Assembly: GCA_964466525.1 (NCBI GenBank)
Contig: CAYXQY010000004.1
Location: 1 to 53,794 of the forward strand
Length of the DNA: 53,794 nucleotides
Source: an uncultured Planctomycetia bacterium
Lineage (GTDB): Bacteria > Planctomycetota > MHYJ01 > CAYXQY01
Direction: 5' to 3'
Part shown: piece after piece, positions 7,125 through 30,317 of the stretch
How the letters are laid out: each line of letters begins with the position of its first letter
Position numbering within the stretch: the first letter of the stretch is position 1
Position numbers and translations under genes: made by a program
The notes under the pieces: model-generated
Told to the model about the DNA's origin: nothing
The model's input: only the letters and a program-made list of their open reading frames with translations
Databases searched by the model: none

Positions 7125-8453
7125 ATGAATTCGGAACATCACCTGGAACAGACACTGGACGAGATTCCGGATGAACCCGGTGTCTACTTCATGAAAGACG
7201 ATAGTGGTCGGGTGCTTTACGTGGGAAAAGCGGTGGATTTGAACAGTCGGGTGAGAAGTTATTTTCACGATTCGACCGATCATTCACCGAAAATCCGAAC
7301 GATGCTGAAAAGCGTGCAAGATGTGGATTACCTCACGACGGACTCGGAAGTTGAAGCACTGCTCAAGGAGTCCCGGCTGATCAAAGACGTACAACCGCCC
7401 TATAACAGCCGGTTGAAGGACGACAAGTCGAAGATTCTTATACAAATAACGAAAAACGAAGATTTTCCACGTGTTGAACTTGTCCGGGAGACGGATGAGT
7501 TGAATCCTGATCAATGTGATTACTACGGACCGTTTCTGAAGGCCGGCGACGTGCGCGGGGCATTGAACGTACTGCAAAAACTGTTTCAGTTTCGGACGTG
7601 TGACCTGGATATCGAAGCGGGAGACCCGAAAAACCAGTACTTTCGACCCTGTCTTCTGTATGAAATCGAACAGTGTACGGCCCCCTGCGCAGAACACATC
7701 TCGGAAGAGGCGTACCGTGAGGATATTGAAGCATTTCAGGAGTTTCTGGAAGGAAACCGCGCTCAACTGCTTGAGGAGCTTGAAGAACGCATGTGGGAAG
7801 CCTCCGACGAACAGGCCTACGAACGAGCGGCAAAGATCAGGGATCAGATCCAGCAGATCAAAGGACTGGAACGAAAAGGTACGCTGGATGACGTCGACAG
7901 CCTCCGTGTACCTCCACAGGATCCTTCCGAGGCGCTTGAGGCGCTCCGGCAAACGCTCGATCTGGACTTCGTTCCGAGGACGGTCCATGCAACGGATATT
8001 GCATCACTTTCCGGCAGGGAAGCGGCAGGATCCGTCGTCACGTTCGTCGATGGAAAGCCGTTCAAAGACGGATACCGCCGTTACCGCATTAAATCGGTGG
8101 AGGGCGTCGACGACTACGGCATGATGAACGAAGTAATTCGGCGCCGATACATCCGGCTGCAGGAGGAGGAACAGCCGTTTCCGCACATTCATTTACTGGA
8201 CGGGGGACGCGGCCATCTCAATGCGGTGCAGGACGAATTCGATCGAATTGACATCGATCCACCGGTACTCGTTGCGATCGCCAAAAATCAGGGCGATCGT
8301 CTGTTTCTAACGGACCGCCCGGATCCCCTCGAACCGGAGGAGAATAATGAAGGGTTTCAGATTCTGCAGCATGCCCGGGACGAAGCCCACCGGTTTGCCG
8401 GTCATTACCATCGAATTCTTCGTGAGAGACGGAACGATACGGACGGTTCATAA
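7125..8453 (+). CDS. uvrC: Excinuclease ABC subunit C, short form without the C-terminal (HhH)2 domain
   Basis: GIY-YIG block (PGVYFMKDDSGRVLYVGKAVDLNSRVRSYF), UVR domain (EQAYERAAKIRDQIQQIK) and endonuclease-V-like block (IHATDIASLSGREAAGSVVTFVDGKPFKDGYRRYRIK ... LQHARDEAHRFAGHYHR). The ORF track starts at GTG 7107, and ATG 7125 is the in-frame alternative used here. Confidence 0.85.
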   Translation: MNSEHHLEQTLDEIPDEPGVYFMKDDSGRVLYVGKAVDLNSRVRSYFHDSTDHSPKIRTMLKSVQDVDYLTTDSEVEALLKESRLIKDVQPPYNSRLKDDKSKILIQITKNEDFPRVELVRETDELNPDQCDYYGPFLKAGDVRGALNVLQKLFQFRTCDLDIEAGDPKNQYFRPCLLYEIEQCTAPCAEHISEEAYREDIEAFQEFLEGNRAQLLEELEERMWEASDEQAYERAAKIRDQIQQIKGLERKGTLDDVDSLRVPPQDPSEALEALRQTLDLDFVPRTVHATDIASLSGREAAGSVVTFVDGKPFKDGYRRYRIKSVEGVDDYGMMNEVIRRRYIRLQEEEQPFPHIHLLDGGRGHLNAVQDEFDRIDIDPPVLVAIAKNQGDRLFLTDRPDPLEPEENNEGFQILQHARDEAHRFAGHYHRILRERRNDTDGS

Positions 8454-8461
8454 CACCAAAT

Positions 8462-8509
8462 GTGTTCGGAAGGGCAGTTTATTCCCATTAGAACCTGTCC
8501 TTCCGACAC
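8462..8509. terminator. Hairpin between convergent uvrC and the AddB-like gene (possible bidirectional terminator)
   Basis: GTGTTCGGAAGG (8462..8473) pairs with CCTTCCGACAC (8499..8509). This gives about 11 bp with one bulge and a roughly 25-nt loop. There is no clear U-tract. Confidence 0.35.
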
Positions 8510-8511
8510 GA

Positions 8512-11500
8512 TCAGTCATCGCCGGTCGTTAATTTTTCGTACCTGCACATCGAACGGTATGGACAGCCACTGATACATGGATCCGGCGTCACCTCGAATG
8601 CTCCGTTTAATATCCGGTTGACGATATGTTTGCTCCCGTCGGCAAGGTCTCGCCGGAGGTCTTCCAGTTCGTATGACGGGTCGGTCCCGGATGGGTCAAG
8701 AACAGTTGTTGACAATTCCGGCTTCCGGCTGTATTCTCTCATCGTGATAAATCCGGCACTCCAGCTTTCAATGTCTTCGTAGTCGTCGACCGACGATTGT
8801 GCGACCGCAAGCACGTACAGCGGAAGCTGAAAACTCCGTGTGCCAAATTCCTCCCGGGAAATCAACCTCCGATATTTCTGGCCGCGACGGGCGTTCTTAT
8901 AATCCAGTACCGTTCCCTGACGTCCAGTCTCGTATTCAATTCGGTCAATTCGACCCTCAAGCTGCATCTGTTCTCCGTCCTCTGATGTAAACTTCACGGC
9001 CGGGAGCTCACGATGTCCGCCGAAGGACCGCTCGGCATGTACCCGTTCCGTAGCTGATCGGTTCCGTTCAAGGTAACGGACCACCTGCCGCAGGCGAATG
9101 CGCAACCGTTCTTTTTTTACCGCCCAGTACGTATCATTTCCGTGAAAACCGTAATGCTCCCACTTCGCAAAGACGTTTTTACAGGCCTCGTTGATGTTTT
9201 CGTCTGTAACTGTGTTGTTCGACCGGTCCCCTGTGTATAATCGCCTGAGCAGTTCGTGAAGAAGCAGCCCTTCACGTCGTCGATCCATACTGAGGATCGG
9301 TTCATCCGTTTCGTCCAGATGAAGGATTCGTTCGCTGAAATACGCGTAAGGACATTGTGCATAACGCTCCAGGGCCGTGGAGGACCATCGATGTGTGTCA
9401 AAATCAGTCAGGTTTTGCCGGAGGAGCCGACGGTATGTGTCCCGGTCCGATATGATTCCGCACCAGGGACCGGCTCGTTCCGTTCGTTCATCCCGGTCGG
9501 TACTCATGAAAAATGCGTCCCGAAGGCGTTCGAGTCGAATCCGCTCCAGCACGTGTTCGATCCGTGTCGAAACGGAATCGCCCCAGCGGGTACCTTCAAG
9601 CAATGAATTGGAGGAAGCCGGGAAGGACTCCTTTTCCTGCGATCGATGCGATACCATCTGGATCAACCGCTCCCGTTCGGTGTAAGCAGGATTTTCCTGA
9701 CCTGTTTCGGACGTCTTCGAATCAGGGGTCTGAACCACTGCGTCGCTGAGGAGTTTCTTTACATCCTCCAGAAACGGAGAGGGAATCTGTTCGGTTCCAT
9801 CCGAATCCCGGCGACTCCATGTAAATACCACCTGCTTCTTTGCGGCGGAAAGTGCCTGGTGAAAAAGGTAAAGTTCCCGGTTTCGTTTGTCCGAAGACCT
9901 CTGCAGGATGCTGCGCTCTTTGTTTGAGCGAAGGGCCTGAATGATGTCGTCCGTCAGAAACGGATCCTCGTGGATGGGTTTCGGCCAGGTGCCTTCGTTC
10001 ATGCCCATCATGATGACGTGATCCGCTTTGATCCCGGATATCTGGGATGGAGTAAGGATTCGTACACCATCATCCGGCCCGGTCCATTTCATGCTGGACC
10101 GGGCCGCTTCCGCCCAGATCCCGTGGAAGAATTCGAGCAGGTCCGATTTGCTGGTGAACGTTGTTTCAAACTCCACGTGATCCAGCCCGTTCTGCAAACG
10201 GTCCAGAAAGGAACGAAACGCGGAGGTACCCCGGAGGTTTCGACGCCCGTGCTCTCCGGGCGGGTTGGTGGACGTTATAGTTGATGAGACGTTGAACATG
10301 TTCCAGTGTGATAGGAGACGTTCGACGAGTTGTTTGAGAGTGGTCTTTTCGTCCGGTGTCTCAAGAAAATCGAACAACTCCTCCATTCGGTTTCGAAACC
10401 GGTGCAAATCATGTTCGAGTCGTTTCTCATGTTCATGGTCCGTCGGGAAAAACGAGCAGTCCGGTGAGGATGACGCAAAGGCCTCCAGGCGATGATGGAG
10501 GTTCCGTTTCATTTGTTTCATACGGGATCGCCACGTGTCGGGTGATCCACCGGTGATTCCGGCTTCCCTGAAGAGACGGTCCAGACCCTCGGGATCAATC
10601 CGGGCGGGACCGCCGAGCAGGGTATTCCGCAACAGGTCGAGCACATCCTCCCGCTGAAACGTATTGAAGGCCGTGTTCACGGGTTGAAGTAGAGAAAGGA
10701 TTCCCGGTTCGAAACACGAGAAACCCGTTTGCTCTCGAAGGACGGGCACATCTCTGGAGGCAAGGGCCTCTGTCAGCTTGCTGGAAGAAGAGGCGTCCCT
10801 GCGGCGAACCACGGCGATTTCATCCGGAGGTACGCCATCGTTCAGTTTGCTTCGCACCCGTCTTGCGACGGATCGATACTCGTTCGCAGGACGGGTTGTT
10901 TCGAGAAATTGCAACGATTCATCCGGCGTTATCGGGTCCAGATTGAGGAGCGATTCAGGCCTTCGAAAGATTCGTTCTCGCACGCGAATAAGGGCGTTGT
11001 CCGGCGTCTTCCCCGGGATCTGAAACGCCGGGTCGACGGTATCAAGAGTCCGCCCGGCTCGCTCGAACTTTTCCACGGTGGACAATACCCATTCGAATGC
11101 CTCACGCCGTTCCGGGTTGTACGAAAATTCTATTTTTGCGTGTTCAACGTGCTGAAGAAGTACGTTCAGAAGCTGGAATTCGAGTTCCGTGAGGTGTTCG
11201 AGTTCACGGATCTCAACGTATTCGGTTGACCCATACGGTGCAGGTAGTCTGGTCCGTTTCTGTGAAACATCGAGGAGGTCGGACATCTGACCGGGATGGT
11301 CCCGGACCCCTTCGTCCGAAAGCAAACTGCAGTATCGTTCGAGAACGTCCGGCAACCGCCGGTGTAATGGGGTTAATCGGTCCAGATGCTGTTGGAAAAC
11401 GTTGGAAAGTTGTTCTCCGCTAACCATTGCCATTCCAAGAACGTGCCGAATCCGGAGAAGCCGGGAGACCAACCGGGAGGGGTGGACATGATCTTCAAAT

Positions 11501-19576: not shown

Positions 19577-20943
19577 ATGACCATTGATAACATCAATCCG
19601 GCAACGGGGGAACGGATCTCCACGTACGAAGAGCAATCAACGGAGGAAGTGGAACGTGCTCTGTCACAATCCGAAGAGGTTTTTTCCTCCTGGAAACAGC
19701 GATCCATTGAATCCCGGGAAAAACGAATCGAGGCGGCGGGAGAAGTACTCCGGAACAACAACCGAAAATACGCGGACATCATGACCCGGGAAATGGGCAA
19801 GCCGATCGAGCAGGCCGAACGTGAGATTGAAAAGTGCGCATGGGTCTGTCGTCACTACGCACAATTCGCGAACGCGTATCTCGAACCGGAGGCCCATCCA
19901 AGCCCGCCGGGCTCACAGGTTCGAACCGTTTACGAGCCTCTTGGGGCGGTGCTTGCGGTTATGCCGTGGAACTTTCCCTTCTGGCAGGTGTTTCGATTTG
20001 CCGCACCGTACCTGACGGCCGGAAATGTGGGCCTTCTGAAACATGCTTCCAATGTGCCGGAATGTGCGAAAGCCATTGAAGAGGTGTTTCGTCAGGCCGG
20101 TTATCCCGATGGTGTATTTCAGACGCTTCTTATTGGTTCCGAGCGGGTGGAACGTGTCCTTGCCGACGATCGTGTAAAGGCGGCGACGCTTACCGGAAGC
20201 GGGCCCGCCGGACGGGCCGTGGCGGCTCAGGCCGGCCAGCAATTGAAAAAGACCGTTCTCGAACTGGGCGGAAGCGACCCGTTTATCGTCCTGAACGACG
20301 CCGATCTCGAAGCGGCCGCCGAAACCGGGGATTGGCCCGGAACCTGAACAGCGGACAGTCCTGTATCGCCGCCAAACGATTCATCGTGCACGACGACGTG
20401 TACGACGAGTTTCTGGATCGGTTGAAACGAGAAGTCGAGACCCTGACGGTGGGAGATCCCACGGATCCGAACACCGACGTCGGACCGCAGGCCGAGTTCC
20501 GGCTCATGGAACAGCTACACGATCAGGTGCGGAAAAGTGTGGACGCCGGAGCCAGGGTGGTTACAGGCGGGCAACCGATGGACCGGGAAGGGGCCTTTTA
20601 CAGGCCGACTGTGCTTTCGGACATACCGTCCGGCTGCCCGGGCGATACGGAGGAGCTGTTCGGTCCCGTCGCTTCGGTCTTCCGCGTGGAGGACGAAGAA
20701 GAAGCCGTAGAAAAAGCCAATGACACGTCGTTTGGCCTGGGAGCCAGCATCTGGACCGAGGATCGAACGAGAGGAAAAAAAATAGCCCGGCGGATCGAGG
20801 CCGGGTGCACGTTTATCAACCAACTGGTCAAGTCCGATCCGCGGGTTCCGTTTGGCGGGATCAAAGAATCCGGGTACGGTCGGGAACTGTCCGAAGCGGG
20901 TATCAAGGAGTTCGTCAATCGAAAAACAATCTGGGTGGAGTAG
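19577..20943 (+). pseudogene. NAD(P)-dependent succinate-semialdehyde/aldehyde dehydrogenase (Sad/YneI-like), split by a 1-nt frame break near 20327..20334
   Basis: ORFs 19577..20347 and 20332..20943 together make one roughly 455-aa ALDH. Recognisable blocks are INPATGE, catalytic LELGGSDP and GQSCIAAKRF, and the C-terminal PFGGIKESGYGRE. The join falls at a short G run (accGGGGattgg). This may be a sequencing artefact. Confidence 0.85.
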
Positions 20944-21327
20944 CCTCATGCAGGTGTCCGATCCACTCGTTTGCTGCATCGAAGAGGAGGGGGTGAACGC
21001 ATTTACGGCCTGTCCAATTCTGATTTCGGTTCAGTTCTCGGGAAGTTTCGGCGTTCGAGGATACAACACCGGTTTTCCGGATGAACTCGAAGACGTTCAG
21101 AGACGAAGAGCCCGGCTTACCGATTACCCGGAGAATCAGAGCGCCGTGAAAAAAATCGTGTGCAGATAAAAGATGTGAAGAACCGTTATCCGCAAACCGG
21201 TGATTGCTGGAAAAATAATCGGTGCATAAGCAAAGATCATCGAAAACAAGAATCCGTGAAATACGGTTCGTAGGGGGTATGGTCGGTTAATCCAGATACC
21301 GCGATTACACAAAGACCACGCGGTCAT
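20912..21327 (-). pseudogene. C-terminal relic of a polytopic membrane protein
   Basis: ORF 21136..21327 reads TVFHGFLFSMIFAYAPIIFPAITGLRITVLHIFYLHTIFF. After a 1-nt shift at an A/T homopolymer it continues as HGALILRVIGK... No N-terminal half exists, because the upstream space is occupied by the dehydrogenase gene ending at 21305. Confidence 0.25.
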
Positions 21328-22624
21328 TTTTTCGCCCGATGTCCCCCATCAGGTTTCGGCTGTCGAAGATCAGCCTGGCGTGCGTAAGTAGCTCCTGGGG
21401 TTTGTAGGCGCTGTGGTCGGTGCAGATAATGACGGCGTCGTAGTTCGACATTGCTTCAGGGTATCCGTCGATGGACGTTTTTTCGCCGGGATAGTTTCGT
21501 GAACTCGTAATTTTCGGAACATGGGGATCATGGTAGTCCACGTGTGCACCGGCTGTTTCCAGAAGTTTGAACATTGCAAGCGCCGGGGATTCTCGGATGT
21601 CGTCCACATTCGCTTTGTATGCCGCTCCGAGGATGAGGACGTCCGACGACGAAAGGGATTCATTCCGGTTGGATAAGGTCCGTTCGATCCGCCGGACAAT
21701 GAGTGCAGGCATACCGGTATTAATGTCACCCGCCAGCTCAACCATCCGTGCTTCCTGTCCCTCCTGTCTGGCTTTCCAGGACAACAGATACGGATCAATT
21801 GGTAGACAGTGTCCCCCGAGACCGGGGCCCGGGTAGAACGCTTCAAAGCCGTATGGTTTGGTTCGGGCGGCTTCGATGACGTTCCAGACGTCCACGTTCA
21901 TGTCCTGAAACAGGACCTTTAGCTCATTGACCAGTGCAATATTGACCGAGCGGTAAATGTTTTCAAGAAGCTTGGTCGCTTCCGCCTCTCGTGGACTGTC
22001 CACGGAAACCACACCGACTGTGATCTCCTGGTAAAAATCCCGGGCAATGACCGTACTTGCATCGTTCAGTCCCCCCAGTACCCGAGGGGTATTGTCGGTT
22101 GTATATTCCTTGTTACCCGGATCGAGACGCTCGGGGGCATACGCCACGTAAAACTCCTGACCGGCATCCAGTCCGCTTTCCTCCAGGATGGGTACCAGTA
22201 GCTCTTCTGTCGTACCGGGATACGTTGTACTTTCCAACACGATCAACTGGTTTGACTGAAGGTGATCTCGGGTGGTTCGTGCGGCCTGTTCGATGAATTC
22301 GGTGTCCGGCGTGCGATCTTCGTTGAGGGGGGTGGGCACACAGATGACAATGATGTTCGCGTCGTCGAGTAAGGATGCATCCGTCGTTGGGTTAAACTGC
22401 CCTGTTTCAACGAATTCCTTTATTGACTGATCGGGCACGGATTCGATGTAGGAGTTTCCCGCCTGCAGCTGATCCACTTTCTGCTGGTCCGAATCCAGGC
22501 CGACAACGGGAAATCCCTTGTTCAGGATGGCCTGCACGAGCGGAAGCCCGACGTATCCCAGGCCCATTACACAAACGTTTGCCGTGTGGTGCTTTATTTT
22601 TGATTGCAGTTCCTCGGAGTTCAT
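21305..22624 (-). CDS. Nucleotide-sugar 6-dehydrogenase of the UDP-N-acetylhexosamine type (WecC/WbpA/TviB/CapL-like)
   Basis: The N-terminal Rossmann motif VCVMGLGYVGLPLV is the GLGYVGLP form typical of UDP-GlcNAc/ManNAc dehydrogenases. A catalytic Cys block (GGHCLPID) and the C-terminal UDP-binding domain are present. Confidence 0.85.
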   Translation of the reverse strand: MNSEELQSKIKHHTANVCVMGLGYVGLPLVQAILNKGFPVVGLDSDQQKVDQLQAGNSYIESVPDQSIKEFVETGQFNPTTDASLLDDANIIVICVPTPLNEDRTPDTEFIEQAARTTRDHLQSNQLIVLESTTYPGTTEELLVPILEESGLDAGQEFYVAYAPERLDPGNKEYTTDNTPRVLGGLNDASTVIARDFYQEITVGVVSVDSPREAEATKLLENIYRSVNIALVNELKVLFQDMNVDVWNVIEAARTKPYGFEAFYPGPGLGGHCLPIDPYLLSWKARQEGQEARMVELAGDINTGMPALIVRRIERTLSNRNESLSSSDVLILGAAYKANVDDIRESPALAMFKLLETAGAHVDYHDPHVPKITSSRNYPGEKTSIDGYPEAMSNYDAVIICTDHSAYKPQELLTHARLIFDSRNLMGDIGRKNDRVVFV

Positions 22625-22758: not shown

Positions 22759-24078
22759 TCAAAAGGGTTCCATCTCCCGACGAACTTTTTCCGGTGCAAA
22801 CGGATCATTGAATGAAGCCCGGAAGAACAACTCCTGAATTACGGCCACGATCCGGACCACCTTCAGCGCAATTTTATACGCCGGGTACAATGGAACAATG
22901 AATAACGTCTTGAGATGAGTGCTTCGACGCCGGCTCAGTATCAGTCCAACGGACACCTGAGGAAGTTTCAACAGGACATGAAACACGTAATTGGCCAGGT
23001 AGATGACCAGGAACTGCCCGGGATAGGCCAGAAAGATGTCGATAAGATAAACAGCCCAGAAAAACGTAACGATCATCGTAAAAAACAGGGTATCGACAAA
23101 GGATAAAAGATTTTGCCAGCGGAAGTGGTGGGTCCACAATCGAAACGTGTCCGGATGTCGAAACAGTCGGGTCCGAATGACATTTCGATTCCACCGGAGT
23201 CGCTGTTTGATCAACGAAGTGACTGACGTGGGAGCATTGGTCAAACAGTTTGCCCGGGGATCGAAAACAATTCGTTTCCCCAGTTTACGAATGCGAATCG
23301 TCAGGTCCGAATCGTTGCCGGGCCCGGGCTCGTGTCCGCCGACGCGTTCAAGCAGTGTTCTGGGAAACGAGCCGAACGCCCCGGACACGATGGGTAAAAT
23401 ACCGATCAGGGAGCGGAAGCACCGTCCAACCGTAATCGAAATCAGGTATTCGATGGACTGAAGCATCGTCAGCGGATTTGAAAACCAGTTTCGTACCCCC
23501 AAATTTCCACAGACCGCCCCGACGTCCTCATGTTTAAAATGTCGAATCATGTTCAGCACGGCGTCCCGATCCAGCGTGGTGTCCGAATCCATAAAGATCA
23601 CGTACTCGGACGAGGACACTTCAAGGGCGTGATTCAGCGCCGCCGATTTCCCCTGGCGTTCGTCCTGCCGGTGGAACTCAATTATGCCTTTCCGGGACAG
23701 TTCCCTGCCAATCTCTGGCGTTCGATCATCCGAACCGTCGTCAACGACAATGACCTCCAGGTTCGGATACGTCTGTTCACGAATGGACTCTACGGTCGGT
23801 CGAAGGGTGTCTTCTTCGTTAAGAACAGGAAGAATAACGGCCACCGACGGAGGATTATCCAGTGATTCCAGCTGTCGGGATTCGTCATCAAACGAAAACC
23901 GCCCCCGCAAACTGTACAACAGAACCACGAAGTCGGTGAGCACGTACCGGGGGATTTCAAGAAAAATGATGGCCCAGTAGGTTCGGATGAATGTAGTGGT
24001 TTCCATGGAGATCATAAAGTCATACAAACTCCATAGAAAACGGATCAGTTCACGAAATGAAGAAACAAACCATTCCAT
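22759..24078 (-). CDS. Processive family-2 glycosyltransferase (membrane-embedded polysaccharide synthase, PgaC/HasA/NodC-like)
   Basis: 439 aa with transmembrane segments at both ends. Motifs are VVDDGSDD, GKSAALN, FMDSDT, VSGAFGSF, GNDSDLTIRI and QRLRW (codons at about 23191..23205). Confidence 0.88.
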   Translation of the reverse strand: MEWFVSSFRELIRFLWSLYDFMISMETTTFIRTYWAIIFLEIPRYVLTDFVVLLYSLRGRFSFDDESRQLESLDNPPSVAVILPVLNEEDTLRPTVESIREQTYPNLEVIVVDDGSDDRTPEIGRELSRKGIIEFHRQDERQGKSAALNHALEVSSSEYVIFMDSDTTLDRDAVLNMIRHFKHEDVGAVCGNLGVRNWFSNPLTMLQSIEYLISITVGRCFRSLIGILPIVSGAFGSFPRTLLERVGGHEPGPGNDSDLTIRIRKLGKRIVFDPRANCLTNAPTSVTSLIKQRLRWNRNVIRTRLFRHPDTFRLWTHHFRWQNLLSFVDTLFFTMIVTFFWAVYLIDIFLAYPGQFLVIYLANYVFHVLLKLPQVSVGLILSRRRSTHLKTLFIVPLYPAYKIALKVVRIVAVIQELFFRASFNDPFAPEKVRREMEPF

Positions 24079-24099
24079 CGTTATTCTATGTATGCATCG

Positions 24100-25230
24100 C
24101 TATGAACCATCTTCCCTCGACCTGTCGATGATGATGGTTGACTCATCCTGGTGTCTTGCCTCCTGAAGCCTTGCGATCGTTTCCTCCATCAGGTGGTCGG
24201 GATCTTCAGCATCACTCATCTCTGTCAAACCAACATGCAGTTTCCATTGATGTTCGAACGGACGTTCTCCGTCTTCCAGTCTCGACGTTAGTCTGCGGGC
24301 AAAAACGCCAGCTCCTTCCCGGTCTGTTTCCGAGAGGATCATAGCAAACTGACGGTCCTGATAGACAGCGAGGAAGTCAGCAGTCCGCGTTTCATCTTTG
24401 AAAATTTCTGCCAGGCGTTTCATATCGTTGATGTATTCACCCGCCTCCATAGCCGTTTCCATCTGGTCGAGGGATAATTCAACCGGCACCGGCTCGGCGA
24501 GAAGCAGTGTTCCGGGCCGGTCATACCGTTTCGCCCTGTGGAACTCAATGGATAACTGTTCCCTGAACATTTCAAATGAAAACACGTCGATATCTTCATC
24601 GAACAGCGCCGGGCCCGATTGTGCCAACTCCAGCGACTGTTGCTCGACCGAACGGGTGCCCTGGGACGATAGTTCATACAGGTGAATTTTTCGTTCTTCA
24701 ACGCTGGATATGTCGTGTTCCTCCCCGCACGATAGACAACGGCAGGACACCTCCGGGTCCTCGAATTTATTTCCACAGTTGTCGCAGTAATACAGCGTAT
24801 TTACTTTTTCATAGTCAATGCCAATGTGTTGCAGCTCAGTGTCACATTTTGTGCAGATTAATTTCGACCCCACCTTGTGCTTGATCTCCGGTCCGACGTT
24901 GCCGCAGGAGTAGTGATGAATCATGTCCGTCAGCGTGATTCGGACCGTCCGGCAGTCGGGACAAACTTCACGAAAATTAAGGGTGTAACGACCGCAGTCC
25001 GGACACAGGTGTATACGATCCACAAGTTCCCGGTTGAGAAACCCGTCACCCGCCAGCTCCTCAAGCATTGAGATTGAAGTTGCGGAATCCAGGTCAAACA
25101 GGGCGTCGACATCCGGATAACGATACCCGGTGTCTACAGAACCGGTAAGTTCCGGTTCAAGCACATCCAGGTTCCCATTGCTCAACTGTTTGAGCAGTTC
25201 CAGTTTGGTTTCGCCTTTGACGTCCGCCAT
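24100..25230 (-). CDS. Cys-rich multi-zinc-ribbon domain (TackOD1-like) fused to a degenerate GGDEF domain with an intact I-site. Putative c-di-GMP receptor.
   Basis: CxxC pairs sit at aa 76/79, 90/93, 126/129 and 149/152, plus C163/C165/C168. The C-terminal GGDEF fold reads RTADFLAVYQDRQFAMILSETD. This aligns with the RxxD-x5-GG(D/E)EF pattern, with RxxD kept (24376..24387) and GGDEF replaced by QDRQF (24346..24360). Confidence 0.75.
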   Translation of the reverse strand: MADVKGETKLELLKQLSNGNLDVLEPELTGSVDTGYRYPDVDALFDLDSATSISMLEELAGDGFLNRELVDRIHLCPDCGRYTLNFREVCPDCRTVRITLTDMIHHYSCGNVGPEIKHKVGSKLICTKCDTELQHIGIDYEKVNTLYYCDNCGNKFEDPEVSCRCLSCGEEHDISSVEERKIHLYELSSQGTRSVEQQSLELAQSGPALFDEDIDVFSFEMFREQLSIEFHRAKRYDRPGTLLLAEPVPVELSLDQMETAMEAGEYINDMKRLAEIFKDETRTADFLAVYQDRQFAMILSETDREGAGVFARRLTSRLEDGERPFEHQWKLHVGLTEMSDAEDPDHLMEETIARLQEARHQDESTIIIDRSREDGS

Positions 25231-25239
25231 CAGAATGGA

Positions 25240-26460
25240 TTAAAACCAGTTAAAGAATTCTGTTTCCAGGGAGATGCGTACATGAACGATCATTCCGGGC
25301 CGGAGCTGTTTTTCAGGGTGTTTGAGGTCAATTCGAACGGGAACCACCTCGTATTCCAGATTCAGAGGAGAGTTTTTCCATTGATCGAGAGATGTGAAGG
25401 AACGCTCGTCCGTCCGAGCCGAACGCCGTAAATTGACGGTTCCTGTCAGTGTGAGATTCCTGTTCCCCACGACCGTGATCCTGGCCGGTTCGCCGTGTTC
25501 AAGGGCCGGATATTTCTGGACGGGAACGTACGCCTGAATCCACTGCTCCTCCTGTAAGGTGATGGAAAGAAGGGGTTCATGTTCTGACACATGTTCCTGT
25601 TCTCCTCTCATGACCTGCTGAATCATTCCGTCACGGGGAGCCCTGATGTTTAATTGCTCCCGCATCCGGCGGATCTTTTCCAGTTCGTGTTTCTTTTGCT
25701 TCACGACCGCCTGTTGTTCATTAATTTTTTGTTTTTTCTTTTTTTTCTGGTGTGTGATCGATTTCTTTGTTTGTGAGACGGTCTGCTCTACATTTTCCAG
25801 TTCCGATTTTAAACTGGAAAAGGTGGATCGAGTCACTTTAAAACGGGAGGTGAGGTCGTCGTATTTCGACTGCACCTCAAGGAATTCCGGTCTCGACACC
25901 GCTTCAAGAAGATAGAGTTTTTCAAAGCGCTCAAGTTTGTCGTTTAACTCCTCCTGCTGCTCCCGAAGACGTTTCAATTCAAGCTTTTTTTCGTCCAGCC
26001 GTGACGTGACCTGGACAACTGATCGACGGGAGGAGGTGACTCTGTTATTCCGTTCAGGATCCAGTTCCATGTTTTTCAGTCCCTGGAGTTCCTGTTTCGA
26101 CTGTTCGTAAGCAGACTTTTTTTGTTGAAGTTCAGATTGTATTACCCCGTTCTGAAGGGTCAGCAACAGATCATTTTCCCTGACAGGTGTTCCTTCGGAA
26201 ACGTGAACCGTGGTTATCGTCCCTCCTGTGCTGGCTCGAACCTGAACAGCAGGGTGAATAATCCGCCCGGTGCTTATGACATACCGGGACTCCAGATAAC
26301 TGTAGGCCATGTAAGCCAGGCCAAACAACACGATGCAACCGACGAAAACCCAGAAATACCAGGTTGTTCGTAAGGGGTCTTTCGATTTCTTCGTGGACTC
26401 CGCACGTTGTGGTTCTTCCTGTTTTTCCTTTCTGGATTTGTTCCAGCTTGTGCCTTTCAT
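25240..26460 (-). CDS. HlyD-family membrane fusion (periplasmic adaptor) protein
   Basis: N-terminal TM anchor, a lipoyl/barrel-sandwich start (SEGTPVRENDLLLTLQN), a long coiled coil that includes a lysine run, and a beta-barrel end (AYVPVQKY...VPVRIDL...LRPGMIVHVRI). Confidence 0.85.
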   Translation of the reverse strand: MKGTSWNKSRKEKQEEPQRAESTKKSKDPLRTTWYFWVFVGCIVLFGLAYMAYSYLESRYVISTGRIIHPAVQVRASTGGTITTVHVSEGTPVRENDLLLTLQNGVIQSELQQKKSAYEQSKQELQGLKNMELDPERNNRVTSSRRSVVQVTSRLDEKKLELKRLREQQEELNDKLERFEKLYLLEAVSRPEFLEVQSKYDDLTSRFKVTRSTFSSLKSELENVEQTVSQTKKSITHQKKKKKQKINEQQAVVKQKKHELEKIRRMREQLNIRAPRDGMIQQVMRGEQEHVSEHEPLLSITLQEEQWIQAYVPVQKYPALEHGEPARITVVGNRNLTLTGTVNLRRSARTDERSFTSLDQWKNSPLNLEYEVVPVRIDLKHPEKQLRPGMIVHVRISLETEFFNWF

Positions 26461-26520: not shown

Positions 26521-28864
26521 TCATTCCGGAAGCAACGCATGTTTCATTTGATGATAGTTGTTGAGAATCACACCGCTGAACCACGGGCTCGATTGATACG
26601 GAACGGCAATGGATTCCAGGGCCTCTCGATACGCACGAGGTGTGAGGTCCGTTTTCGTTTCGTGCACTGACCTCTGGTGTTCCACAACATGCCGATTCGC
26701 GATTTCATGCCAGACGGGAACGGGCGAAGAGCTATTTGTGGCGTTCGCCGCATGGTGTAGCAATGATTCGATGTCAACCGGGTCGCTGGCGTGATATCGG
26801 ACGATGAGTTCGTCGAAACGGTCCGGAAGCCGGTTCAAAAACTGTTTGAGGGGAGGGGCATCCAGCGATTTTAGATATAAAAACGGTACGACCAGAAACA
26901 CCCGTTCATCCGGCTGCGTATTCAGAAATCGGTTCTTCTTAAGTTCTCTGGTTTGACGTATGAATGTGTCTGCGGAGACGTCGGAGATGGCACCTGTCCC
27001 AACAGCGATTGCATGAAATGGTTCGGGACTTCGTTCCTGAAAATCCAGAAGGGAGTTTAACCGGCGAGCCGCTGCCCGGGAAACGTTCATGTCCTGATCG
27101 AAAACGGAGACATGTGCAATCGTTTTTCGTTTCCGGTCCCGTATTTCGCTGATGAGGTTGCCAAGGAGTGAATCGTCCTTTTTTTGGACGGGTTCATCCA
27201 CCGTCACAACCAATCGTCTGTAGCTCATCCTCTTCAGGTATTTACGAAGAAAAGATTTCTCCGGTTCACCGGAACGCAATCGACTGAATTTCACTACGAT
27301 TCCTTTTTTTAACGGCTTTTGAGACGTTTTCTTTTTGAAATCTACATCCGTATGATCGGACATCTTTTGAAGCGGAAGATGTTTTGCGGAGGCCCCCATT
27401 GATTCAGCCAGTTCCAGGTACGTCATCGTCAGGTTGCGTTTCTCGGTCAGGATGCCCAGAACGGTTTCAAGATATAAGTGTTTCCGATCCGTGTAATACG
27501 ACCAGTTCGAAAGTGCTCCGCTATCCTGTTGAAGTTTCGCCTCTTCCAGTTCCGATCGGACACGACGGAGACGATTCCGACGATCTTTCAGCATCTGCTG
27601 TTCCGTTCGCATGGTCTCGATTTTGTCAGCTACCTCCTGCTGAATTTCGGATAGTTTCTCGTCCATTTCGGAAATAAGGGTGTTCAGAATGGCCCGTTCT
27701 TCCCTGTTTCGGGCGTTCACAATGGGCCAGTAAAGAAGCGGGATGGAATATCGTCCATCAATCGTCGGGCCGGACGTAAGGTCCTCTGAACCTCCGGTTC
27801 CATAGCTGACGACCCCTTTCGCATCAAGTGGTGTCAATTTCTTGCTTCTGATTTCTCCTTTTTCTCGCCGAAACGCCCCCTGGATCCGGGACACGTCCGT
27901 CCGTCTTGTTATCGCACTTTTGACCGCCCACGGGATCGGGGGTTTATCCGTAATTTCGGGCACCTGTGGCTTCAGTTGCAGCGGGGCGTCCACGGGACGA
28001 TTCAATAAGGTGTTCAGCGTGTTTTTCGCCTGACGAACCGTCATTTTCGTCTCCTGAAGCCGTTCGGACAAATTCTGTATGTCCCGGGTTTCTTGAAGTA
28101 TGGAGAGATCCGGTCGGACGTCGTAAAAGACACGCTGTTCCAGACGGCGTACGGTGGTGCGGGCGAGCCGGAGCCGTCTGTGAAGCACCTGTTTTCGCTT
28201 CTGTTCGAAGAGCACCCGGGCATACGCCTTCGTCGCCAGATATAATTTCTTCCTTTGCTCCCGGGCGTAGATGCTCAGGCGGGAGACCAGCTCTCCTTTC
28301 GCACGTTCAATGCCGTAGTTTCGCTTCCAGATTCCATCGATGACCGACTGGGTCAGGCTGGCAAGAATACCACCGGGATAAAACCGAGTAATGAGGTTGA
28401 ACCGGGGACCGTAGGAAACACCTTCACGATCGAGGGCGGCCCGTGCTCGAATAATCTCATGCAGCTGTTTTTTGTATCGTTGGGTTTCGTGCCTGTATTC
28501 CGGATAAAAGCCGGAGAAGATTTATGTGAGACGTTCTGGAGTTGTTTTTGTGAAACGAAACATACCCCTTACGTACAGCGTTCGTGGATTTCTCAGCTGC
28601 TTCGGTTTCCGACGTGAGTGCGTTGTGCAGGATCTGTCCCCTCTGATCTTCCGGATGCTGCTTACGAAAATCCTTGAGCCGACGTAACGCGTATTCGTCG
28701 TTTCCACGGACGTACTCCAGCAGAATGGATTCAAAGGGTTCGGTCGACTGAAGGGGATCGGGGATCCGCTTCAAATCTGTGGACGCACATCCGTACAGCA
28801 CCAGGAGTAAAAGGCAGCAGATGGCACGATGAAGCCATCGGCCGATCGTGATTCCGGTAGTCAT
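26521..28864 (-). pseudogene. TolC-like outer-membrane-factor lipoprotein with an extra ~290-aa C-terminal domain. The reading frame is broken once at about 28457..28524.
   Basis: ORF 28457..28864 starts with a lipobox (LLLLVLYGC/AS) and ends ...IQARNPTIQKTAA*. The frame of ORF 26521..28215 is open up to 28521 and reads ...QLHEIIRARAALDREGVSYGPRFNLITRFY.... This continues the OEP consensus when one base of the T/A run at about 28468..28473 is removed. Two OEP-type repeats are followed by a non-OEP domain (about 26524..27393). Confidence 0.7.
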
Positions 28865-29420: not shown

Positions 29421-30317
29421 ATGAGGTTTAAACCGAACTTCCTGCAATCCGAAATCCATACAACCGCCAATCAATCCGTTCCGCTCCGTGGATTGGTTTT
29501 GAGCTTCCTTGCTCTGCTCGCCACGTTTATCGTGTATCTTCTCTGGCCGGCCTCCGCCGATAAATACGTGGGTCTGGTCTGGATTTTCAGTTTAATTCCC
29601 CTATTCCTGCTGGCGTATTACAGAGGGATGTGGGGGACGGTGTATGCGGCAACGGCGACCATGATTGCTTTTGGATTGGCCGAGATAATTAGCGTCTTGT
29701 ACCTGGACCAACAATTGAACTGGTGGCTTTACGGCATCGTCGTTGGACTATTGCTTGTGGTGACCCTGTTCACCGGGTGGCTGTCGAGCAGGCTGATCGA
29801 GGAGCGAGAGGAAGCCATGCAGATGGCGTTCAAAGACCCGCTTACCGGGCTCGAGAGTCGTCGGGCACTCGACTTTTATTTTGACAAGCAGGTTGAGGAC
29901 GCCCGCCGCGGACATCAACTGAGTATTGCCTTTTTTGATCTCGATGATTTCAAACATTACAACGACGAGTATGGACACGACGCGGGCGATCAGATTCTCA
30001 GGAAAACGGGGCAGGTATTGCAGGAGAACACAAGGAATGCGGACCTCACCGGTCGATTCGGTGGTGAGGAGTTTCTTTCGATCCTCTCCGGCGAAGCAGA
30101 AGAGGGGGCGAAGATTTTTGCCCAGCGGGTGTGTTCGGACATTGCCGAGATGGATTCACCGCATCCGGATCCACCGACTATCAGCGGGGGGGTCGCGTCC
30201 TGGTCCGAAGATATGGACGAGAAACAGGAGCTGCTTGACCGGGCGGATAAAGCCCTGTACCGGGCCAAGGACAGGGGCGGAAACCTGGTGGTTACATGGT
30301 CGGAAATGGAAGCGTAG
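29421..30317 (+). CDS. Membrane-anchored diguanylate cyclase (GGDEF domain, predicted active)
   Basis: Four to five N-terminal TM helices, then DPLTGLESRRAL...FFDLDDFKHYNDEYGHDAGD...RNADLTGRFGGEEFLSIL. The GGEEF active site and the RxxD I-site are both intact. Confidence 0.9.
   Translation: MRFKPNFLQSEIHTTANQSVPLRGLVLSFLALLATFIVYLLWPASADKYVGLVWIFSLIPLFLLAYYRGMWGTVYAATATMIAFGLAEIISVLYLDQQLNWWLYGIVVGLLLVVTLFTGWLSSRLIEEREEAMQMAFKDPLTGLESRRALDFYFDKQVEDARRGHQLSIAFFDLDDFKHYNDEYGHDAGDQILRKTGQVLQENTRNADLTGRFGGEEFLSILSGEAEEGAKIFAQRVCSDIAEMDSPHPDPPTISGGVASWSEDMDEKQELLDRADKALYRAKDRGGNLVVTWSEMEA

Follow-up and report, generated by a model that had tools for sequence, protein, structure and literature searches.

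A stretch of 53,794 nucleotides from an uncultured Planctomycetia bacterium (assembly GCA_964466525.1, contig CAYXQY010000004.1; in the following the window) raises the question of what a soluble protein with a degenerate GGDEF domain does directly upstream of the gene of a membrane-bound family 2 glycosyltransferase (GT2). The protein is encoded at 24100..25230 on the minus strand and consists of a TackOD1 module fused to the degenerate GGDEF domain, an architecture which we abbreviate as TackOD1-GGDEF*. Judging from the sequence comparisons described below, it is probably a trans-acting receptor that binds cyclic di-GMP (c-di-GMP) at the inhibitory site (I-site) and activates synthase-dependent exopolysaccharide synthesis and export, and a relative of Shewanella MxdA that lacks a receiver (REC) domain.

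The open reading frame (ORF) codes for 376 aa, and Pfam assigns two domains to it. The TackOD1 match (PF18551) covers residues 7-187 and profile positions 8-188 of 188 at E=3.1e-49, with 167.5 bits versus a cutoff of 32, and the GGDEF match (PF00990), obtained with the single sequence, covers residues 271-363 with 28.2 bits versus a cutoff of 23.8. No transmembrane segment was found in the 376-aa protein (the maximum Kyte-Doolittle mean over 19 residues is 0.65), and the polypeptide is strongly acidic with a net charge of -37. The gene is packed tightly between its neighbors: the start codon lies 9 nt past the stop of a HlyD-family gene, and the distance from its own stop to the start codon of the GT2 gene is 21 nt (24079..24099). 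These data agree with an earlier note on this DNA, made from the letters alone, which had described a protein without transmembrane segment at these coordinates, 21 nt upstream of the GT2 gene, and had likened its N-terminal half to TackOD1; this label and the proposed GGDEF domain are both matched above the Pfam cutoffs.

The nature of the C-terminal half was addressed with a profile built from alignment A1 (12 orthologues, all full-length), which matched GGDEF domains of known structure along the entire domain at E=1e-18 (residues 215-365; 24136..24588, minus strand). When the AlphaFold2 (AF2) model of the protein, which has a mean pLDDT of 75.9, was compared in Foldseek, it superposed on structures of isolated GGDEF domains, and the target TM-scores were 0.79-0.83. 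In the profile alignment the RxxD motif lies on the RxxD of the solved domains, and the GGEEF of 3ign and GcbC lies on a variable segment. The RxxD of the window protein is R282-T-A-D285 (RTAD, 24376..24387, minus strand), the primary I-site motif, which is invariant in the 12 orthologues. The active-site position is occupied by QDRQF instead of GG(D/E)EF (residues 291-295; 24346..24360, minus strand), and in single-sequence alignments this segment falls on the GGEEF or GGDEF of GcbC, 3ign, DosC and WspR. HMMER alignments to 3ign, 5euh and WspR likewise place QDRQF on GGEEF, and the spacing from RxxD over five residues to the GGDEF position is the same as in canonical GGDEF domains.

Conservation was counted in an alignment of the best 150 among 960 clusters of relatives (50% identity, E<=1e-30), the latter being the size of the family in an exhaustive profile search. 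A G[GAS][DE]EF motif is present in none of the 150 relatives and the aligned position is hypervariable; in column 246, which corresponds to the first metal-binding Asp of the DxD strand, the residues vary as well. Conservation in the C-terminal half is highest in the columns of D285 (141 of 144 residues present, 94% of the 150 representatives) and R282 (136 of 144, 91%), followed by those of R235, E229, T302, R232 and R313. According to a review, the I-site is formed by RxxD, by R390 of PleD and by an Arg which a second GGDEF domain contributes (R313 in PleD numbering). The counterpart of PleD R390, and with it the third residue of the primary I-site, is R313 of the window protein (24292..24294, minus strand), which lies 28 residues past the RxxD Asp, as R390 lies past D362 in PleD, and aligns with an Arg of 3ign. 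Among the 150 relatives position 313 is Arg in 122 and Lys in 12, and RxxD is combined with Arg or Lys at this position in 131. Furthermore, R232 and R235 may sit where the second-site Arg would fall, judged by their spacing from the DxD-equivalent strand. Because GG(D/E)EF is kept in none of the relatives while the RxxD columns top the conservation, the alignment indicates that the catalytic site of the GGDEF domain has been abandoned family-wide and that the allosteric c-di-GMP site has been retained by selection. This is the combination that the earlier note had proposed for a GGDEF-like C-terminal region, with positions of RTAD and QDRQF that are exact by codon arithmetic, and both the profile search and the structure prediction are in line with it.

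The N-terminal half consists of two parts. Residues 5-72 (25015..25218, minus strand) form an acidic, winged-helix-like subdomain, which corresponds to the N-terminal part of the Pfam TackOD1 model, and residues 73-187 (24670..25014, minus strand) form a Cys/His-rich beta module with three predicted metal sites. In a domain-only AF2 model (pLDDT 94.5) a three-helix winged-helix-like subdomain is followed by a beta-rich Cys module. A Foldseek search with this domain model yielded no significant PDB analogue for the whole TackOD1 domain, the best E-value being 0.047; the first ~65 residues gave local matches to MarR-type winged helix-turn-helix (wHTH) proteins over 62-71 columns with probabilities of 0.7-0.87. 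The domain was originally defined by 11 Cys in five CxxC and one HxxC motif, its function was called obscure and a structural role was suggested for the metal (Galperin et al., 2018). All six motifs are present in the window protein: C76xxC79, C90xxC93, H106xxC109, C126xxC129, C149xxC152 and C165xxC168. The predicted ligand sets are C76/C79 with C90/C93, H106/C109 with C126/C129, and C149/C152 with C165/C168, and all 12 positions (11 Cys and one His) are kept in 89-100% of the relatives. An additional Cys, C163, is conserved in 53 of 150 relatives only. As the conserved ligands amount to 11 Cys and one His and do not include C163, they are predicted to suffice for three tetrahedral metal sites, not for four zinc ribbons. 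The Cys positions listed in the earlier note (76/79, 90/93, 126/129, 149/152 and 163/165/168) are thus all present, and its expectation that the cysteines are conserved holds for the 11 ligands; the expectation fails for C163, and so does the count of four ribbons. The picture of an N-terminal half made of ribbons only has to be given up, as the first ~70 residues are winged-helix-like; the HxxC motif (H106/C109) had been overlooked.

The second line of evidence comes from the gene context. A GT2 orthologue lies directly beside the TackOD1-GGDEF* gene and on the same strand in 21 scorable loci of 33, representing at least eight phyla, and the two genes are often overlapping or nearly abutting. 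These loci belong to Planctomycetota, Gammaproteobacteria, Nitrospirota, KSB1, Omnitrophota, Hydrogenedentota, Desulfoluna and other Desulfobacterota. The identities of both proteins to their counterparts in the window co-vary (Spearman rho 0.75, p=1e-4). In Desulfoluna limicola, KSB1, a gammaproteobacterial metagenome-assembled genome and Nitrospirales the operon is completed by genes for an OEP protein of 740-1000 aa and for a HlyD protein. In the window the cluster on the minus strand comprises, in this order, an outer-membrane factor (OMF), a HlyD-type adaptor of the membrane fusion protein (MFP) type, TackOD1-GGDEF*, GT2 and an NDP-sugar dehydrogenase. The order OMF-MFP-TackOD1-GGDEF*-GT2 of the window differs from that in Gammaproteobacteria and Nitrospirota, which is TackOD1-GGDEF*-GT2-(OEP)-MFP. 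The window therefore holds all parts of a tripartite synthesis and export module, namely a GT2 with the motifs D,D,D,Q(Q/R)xRW, a HlyD-family MFP and a TolC-family OMF, of which the earlier note had considered the GT2 alone.

The family is also found in Aquificota, in addition to Planctomycetota, Nitrospirota, Gammaproteobacteria, Desulfobacterota and KSB1. The window protein is a short form without REC domain, and 105 of the 150 best relatives have an N-terminal extension of 90-200 aa, which measures ~110-150 aa in most of the long members. Pfam calls this extension REC in 15 of 100 members, with clear cases from KSB1 and Sumerlaeota at E=1e-22 to 1e-24, and an iterative HMM search, in which the set was still growing, ties at least 67 of 107 extensions to REC (alignment A2). 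No conserved column of a phospho-acceptor Asp was found in the 107 extensions, and many of them may be pseudo-receivers. Three loci of Sumerlaeota (L026, L011, L017) carry REC-TackOD1-GGDEF* genes that are not located beside a GT2 gene. These genes (7572-9062 in L026) are accompanied by two right-handed beta-helix proteins and by a T2SS-G/pseudopilin-like gene, a context that recalls the type IV pilus loci reported for archaeal TackOD1.

Further matches turned up on plasmids and chromids in PLSDB. The matches H5-H20 comprise TackOD1 only (query residues ~10-210, with the GGDEF part unaligned) and come from the haloarchaea Haladaptatus, Natronococcus and Haloterrigena and from the Alphaproteobacteria Aminobacter, Phyllobacterium, Methylocystis and Roseibium; they carry the names hypothetical protein or response regulator. 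The mobilizable 29-kb plasmid pKAM345_3 of Aeromonas caviae (L031) encodes a 460-aa TackOD1-GGDEF* protein at 7602-8984, named 'diguanylate cyclase', followed by a GT2 gene at 9076-9960 that spans the origin of the record. The TackOD1-GGDEF*/GT2 module may thus be horizontally mobile.

The arrangement of the genes is reminiscent of the mxdABCD operon of Shewanella oneidensis. There, mxdA is the first gene and lies just upstream of mxdB, which encodes a membrane GT2; MxdC is a homologue of efflux pumps and MxdD a hypothetical protein. MxdA is a degenerate-GGDEF protein that influences c-di-GMP levels only indirectly. It binds c-di-GMP, the cyclase PdgA and the receiver CheY3, interacts with itself and 'probably activates the Mxd machinery'. 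The same layout is present in the window, with a degenerate-GGDEF gene immediately upstream of GT2 and an efflux- or MFP-like gene in the operon. In the homology search with the GT2, a protein from Nitrospirales with 47% identity (P0199) carries the submitter name 'MxdB', and its operon consists of TackOD1-GGDEF* (372 aa), GT2, OEP (791 aa) and MFP (369 aa). Furthermore, tblastn searches of annotated plasmids and chromids revealed a 452-aa protein with N-terminal extension, TackOD1 and GGDEF* in Photobacterium, followed by GT2 and a HlyD-like gene, the same layout in Plesiomonas under the names 'diguanylate cyclase / glycosyltransferase / HlyD family efflux transporter periplasmic adaptor', and a receptor gene followed by GT2 on the Aeromonas plasmid. 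The operons of Photobacterium and Plesiomonas fit the published description of mxdABC.

Relatives from Shewanella itself were not found by tblastn against PLSDB, nor were they among the best 120 matches listed in a homology search with a gamma-weighted profile, and two promoter primer sequences of strain MR-1 had no match in metagenome contigs. The genome scan used the pattern HIG[VI]DYE[KE], which misses the gammaproteobacterial clade; as this clade has HIGVDYDR rather than HIGVDYEK, the scan could show neither the gammaproteobacterial operons nor Shewanella. From the similarity of the operons we nevertheless consider it likely that MxdA itself has the TackOD1-GGDEF* architecture, with the window protein as its relative without REC. 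There are also differences between the two systems. The window protein lacks the N-terminal extension of ~110-140 aa found in the 450-aa gammaproteobacterial forms, and the window operon exceeds mxdABCD by an OMF of its own, which is TolC-like, and by a sugar dehydrogenase; its order is OMF-MFP-receptor-GT2. In the literature we found, MxdA is not said to contain a zinc-ribbon or TackOD1 module, and no literature link of TackOD1 to MxdA or to GGDEF was found. A shared trait, on the other hand, is the connection to receivers: MxdA binds the receiver protein CheY3, and in many members of the family REC is part of the same polypeptide.

The combination of a dead GGDEF motif with a retained I-site has precedents. 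PssE of Listeria is an I-site receptor with a Kd of 0.79 uM which is essential for the Pss polysaccharide, and YdaK of Bacillus is the c-di-GMP receptor for the yda operon and likewise needed for polymer synthesis. PelD of Pseudomonas reportedly binds c-di-GMP and is said to be required for polymer synthesis. Like the window protein, all three have a dead GGDEF motif with RxxD five residues upstream and are encoded in a synthase operon, and the analogy to PelD and PssE drawn in the earlier note finds good support both in the conserved residues and in the neighboring genes. The similarity does not extend further: PssE, YdaK and PelD are anchored in the membrane and lack TackOD1, PelD has a GAF domain in addition, and the window protein is soluble, without detectable sequence kinship to any of them beyond the generic GGDEF fold. 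Moreover, the partner of PelD is a GT4 (PelF), and the Gram-positive systems have neither MFP nor OMF. As it lacks the membrane anchor of these receptors, the window protein belongs to a separate family that seems to work in a similar way.

With respect to the export machinery, the closest parallels are tripartite systems under c-di-GMP control. The mixed-linkage glucan of Sinorhizobium is made by BgsA/BgsB/TolC, a c-di-GMP-activated GT2-MFP-TolC system, and a cyanobacterial system of cellulose synthase, HlyD and TolC is also activated by c-di-GMP. Both share with the window a processive GT2, a HlyD-family adaptor and a TolC-type channel. They differ in the position of the sensor, which is the C-terminal domain of the synthase in BgsA and a separate protein in the window; the cyanobacterial cellulose synthase senses c-di-GMP via its own PilZ domain. 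In addition, TolC of Sinorhizobium is encoded elsewhere, whereas the window operon has a dedicated and extended OMF. The archaeal TackOD1 proteins share PF18551 with its five CxxC and one HxxC motif and occur stand-alone or after REC; they are domains of ~200 aa from type IV pilus loci for which a GGDEF partner is not stated (Galperin et al., 2018), whereas the window protein combines a GGDEF fusion with a link to GT2.

Taken together, these comparisons suggest the following mechanism for the proposed receptor. c-di-GMP, possibly produced by the diguanylate cyclase encoded at 29421..30317, would bind to the I-site as an intercalated dimer and alter the oligomeric state or the domain orientation of the protein. 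The conserved Arg residues of the preceding helix may allow two GGDEF* domains to be cross-linked, which would be consistent with the self-interaction of MxdA. The TackOD1 module, predicted to be stabilised by zinc, would then touch the GT2 on its cytoplasmic side, or else the basic tail that the adaptor has in the cytoplasm, and this contact would license polymerisation and extrusion through the GT2-MFP-OMF conduit. An additional phosphorylation input by a CheY-like protein in trans seems plausible because relatives have a fused REC domain and CheY3 binds MxdA. A stand-alone REC gene was not found among the flanking window ORFs that were scanned.

Several points weigh against this interpretation. 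The Pfam match of the single sequence to GGDEF is barely over the threshold and spans the C-terminal two thirds of the domain only. The proposed c-di-GMP function is derived from conservation and gene context, for the protein itself as well as for its close orthologues, and the probable kinship to MxdA is deduced from how the operons are laid out, from what the literature says of MxdA and from the name 'MxdB' given by a third party. Unlike PelD, PssE and YdaK, which sit in the membrane, the window protein is soluble and would have to reach the synthase without an anchor. Other ligands are conceivable, as structures of PleD with (p)ppGpp beside c-di-GMP exist according to their PDB titles (9g85, 9g86). 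The members in Sumerlaeota that lie away from GT2 demonstrate that the module is not exclusively a regulator of exopolysaccharides. Finally, the OMF gene is frameshifted in this assembly, so that the system could be defective in this organism.

A broader role of TackOD1 would accommodate the Sumerlaeota loci. It is possible, although we regard it as rather doubtful, that TackOD1 is a general docking module which relays receiver phosphorylation, c-di-GMP occupancy or both to envelope-spanning machines. These would be the GT2-MFP-OMF exporters of bacteria and, for Thaumarchaeota and part of the Sumerlaeota, the machineries encoded in loci for type IV pili or pseudopilins. The widespread REC-TackOD1-GGDEF* fusion would then be the 'Rosetta stone' for the interaction of CheY3 with MxdA, which is puzzling otherwise, and the window protein would combine a c-di-GMP signal received in cis with the input of a CheY-like protein in trans. 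If true, two signals would be integrated on a zinc-stabilised platform for which the PDB offers no structural precedent.

Among the explanations that compete with a c-di-GMP receptor, one holds that the protein is a structural or scaffold component that works independently of nucleotides, or that it senses (p)ppGpp or a cyclic dinucleotide other than c-di-GMP; RxxD and the Arg residues would then be kept for contacts between proteins or for that other ligand. The PleD structures would allow for this, the case for c-di-GMP is built on sequence and gene context, and there are lineages and contexts in which a family member has no diguanylate cyclase next to it. We nevertheless consider it unlikely, since RxxD, the Arg 28 residues downstream and the Arg residues of the preceding helix together make up the canonical c-di-GMP I-site, an intact diguanylate cyclase adjoins the cluster in the window, and the probable relative MxdA as well as the analogues PssE and YdaK bind c-di-GMP. 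An equally small chance is left to a redox or metal sensor, in which the module of 11 Cys and one His binds Zn or Fe reversibly or forms disulfides and thereby gates polysaccharide production, with GGDEF* being secondary. CxxC pairs can act as redox switches or form rubredoxin-like Fe sites, and the cysteines are extremely conserved. The regular pairing of the knuckles and the beta-hairpins are, however, typical of structural zinc ribbons, as is also suggested by the structural metal role put forward by Galperin et al. (2018), and a sensor of this kind leaves the selective conservation of the I-site unexplained. It would moreover be compatible with a c-di-GMP receptor rather than exclusive of it.

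A c-di-GMP-responsive transcription factor, whose winged helix and zinc ribbons bind DNA or RNA and control the expression of the polysaccharide operon, appears still less probable. Zinc ribbons often bind nucleic acids, and the local MarR-type wHTH matches are joined by weak matches to TFIIE-like proteins with winged helix and Zn-ribbon; in addition, TackOD1 owes its definition to archaeal response regulators, in which it is the output domain. All of these Foldseek E-values are non-significant (>0.3), however, and the putative recognition helix (SATSISMLEELAG) is devoid of basic residues. The winged-helix-like subdomain has a net charge of -4 to -11 and a pI of 4.1-4.9 in 12 of 12 orthologues, on account of which we rejected DNA binding by this subdomain, and the Cys module is acidic too (pI 5.1-6.7). 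The tight same-strand adjacency to GT2 is typical of subunits, and PssE, YdaK, PelD and MxdA have each been presented as an effector of the respective machinery. The database names would make the protein an active diguanylate cyclase, albeit an unusual one; this is effectively refuted by the sequence with QDRQF in place of GG(D/E)EF, no GGDEF-like motif in any of the 150 relatives and an unconserved first Asp of DxD (column 246), and MxdA is described as changing c-di-GMP levels only indirectly.

With a c-di-GMP receptor as the preferred interpretation, the names in the databases deserve a comment. In RefSeq the family is called 'TackOD1 domain-containing metal-binding protein' or 'diguanylate cyclase', and the name 'diguanylate cyclase (GGDEF)-like protein' is in use as well. 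The loss of the catalytic motif throughout the alignment indicates that 'diguanylate cyclase', the name of many members, is a systematic mis-annotation, which inflates the number of diguanylate cyclases in genome censuses. The earlier note had regarded the combination of metal-binding module and c-di-GMP sensor as a new receptor architecture, a view which cannot be maintained given 960 clusters, recognition by Pfam, existing RefSeq names and an operon that matches the published mxdABCD. The architecture is widespread and already catalogued and very probably corresponds to the partly characterised effector MxdA; the window protein thus receives a confident functional annotation and does not represent a new kind of system. 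The analysis adds a definition of the family by its domains, a view of how broad it is, the TackOD1 platform and the link from the REC fusions to CheY3. Control of polysaccharide secretion by c-di-GMP is central to biofilm biology, and receptors are known for a handful of systems. Here, a broad family couples a conserved I-site in GGDEF* to a structurally unprecedented, predicted zinc module and is tied to a GT2/HlyD/TolC-type exporter. MxdA would probably gain a domain definition, TackOD1 plus GGDEF*, and would become connected to an 'obscure' output domain of archaeal response regulators, and the fused REC domains would offer a rationale for its binding to CheY3.

The neighboring genes specify the machine on which the receptor would act. 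The GT2 (22759..24078, minus strand; 439 aa) is a processive, MxdB-like membrane synthase according to Pfam and NCBIfam, and its translation contains the motifs VVDDGS, DSD, NDSDL and QRLRW of processive synthases; among proteins of known structure it is related to hyaluronan synthase, BcsA and chitin synthase. It stays under every NCBIfam equivalog cutoff, the best score being 173 bits for PgaC_IcaA versus a required 422. Neither PilZ nor another c-di-GMP-binding domain was found in the GT2 with Pfam and NCBIfam, and an extra C-terminal domain is lacking, since the polypeptide ends ~25 aa past the last hydrophobic stretch. The HlyD-family periplasmic adaptor (25240..26460, minus strand; 406 aa) matches HlyD_3 and HlyD_D23 in Pfam and RND_mfp and type_I_hlyD in NCBIfam, and has a single N-terminal transmembrane helix and a basic cytoplasmic tail; such an adaptor gene accompanies TackOD1-GGDEF* in many loci. 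Downstream of GT2, at a distance of 134 nt, the last gene of the same-strand cluster (21305..22624, minus strand) encodes the NDP-sugar dehydrogenase (TIGR03026 in NCBIfam, 435 bits). Its nearest models are UDP-ManNAc and UDP-GlcNAc 6-dehydrogenases, with the equivalog models remaining below their cutoffs, and a counterpart near the module is present in the KSB1 locus L012 only. The dehydrogenase is a possible supplier of precursors and hints at an acidic component of the amino-sugar or uronic-acid type in the polymer.

The intact diguanylate cyclase (29421..30317, plus strand) is membrane-anchored, carries GGEEF and an RNAD I-site and is matched by GGDEF models of Pfam (E=1.4e-40) and NCBIfam (145 bits). 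It is transcribed divergently from the cluster, on whose upstream side it lies at a distance of 556 nt, and may serve as a local source of c-di-GMP; in the other loci an adjacent diguanylate cyclase was not found at E<=1e-8. Across the cluster, the counts of predicted promoters and terminators are no higher than in shuffled controls.

The OMF gene (26521..28864, minus strand) encodes a TolC/NodT-like lipoprotein with the lipobox LYGC, as identified by tblastn and by the NCBIfam models outer_NodT and TolC, and its orthologues match OEP at up to E=2e-26. The frame is broken near 28469-28473: in tblastn, residues 11-145 of the intact 786-aa orthologue from L003 align in one frame and residues 144-786 in another. 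The gene may be a pseudogene, but an indel of the assembly is more likely. An aldehyde dehydrogenase gene at 19577-20943 on the plus strand is also split, into ORFs 19577..20347 and 20332..20943, with a GGGG run and a break at ~20330, and this second frameshift within 10 kb suggests homopolymer sequencing errors in the contig. After the OEP repeats, the OMF has a C-terminal extension of ~280 aa (window 26521-27350) without Pfam match, as do the orthologues, which are 740-1000 aa long; a role in handling the polymer or as a plug, peculiar to exporters of this kind, is conceivable.

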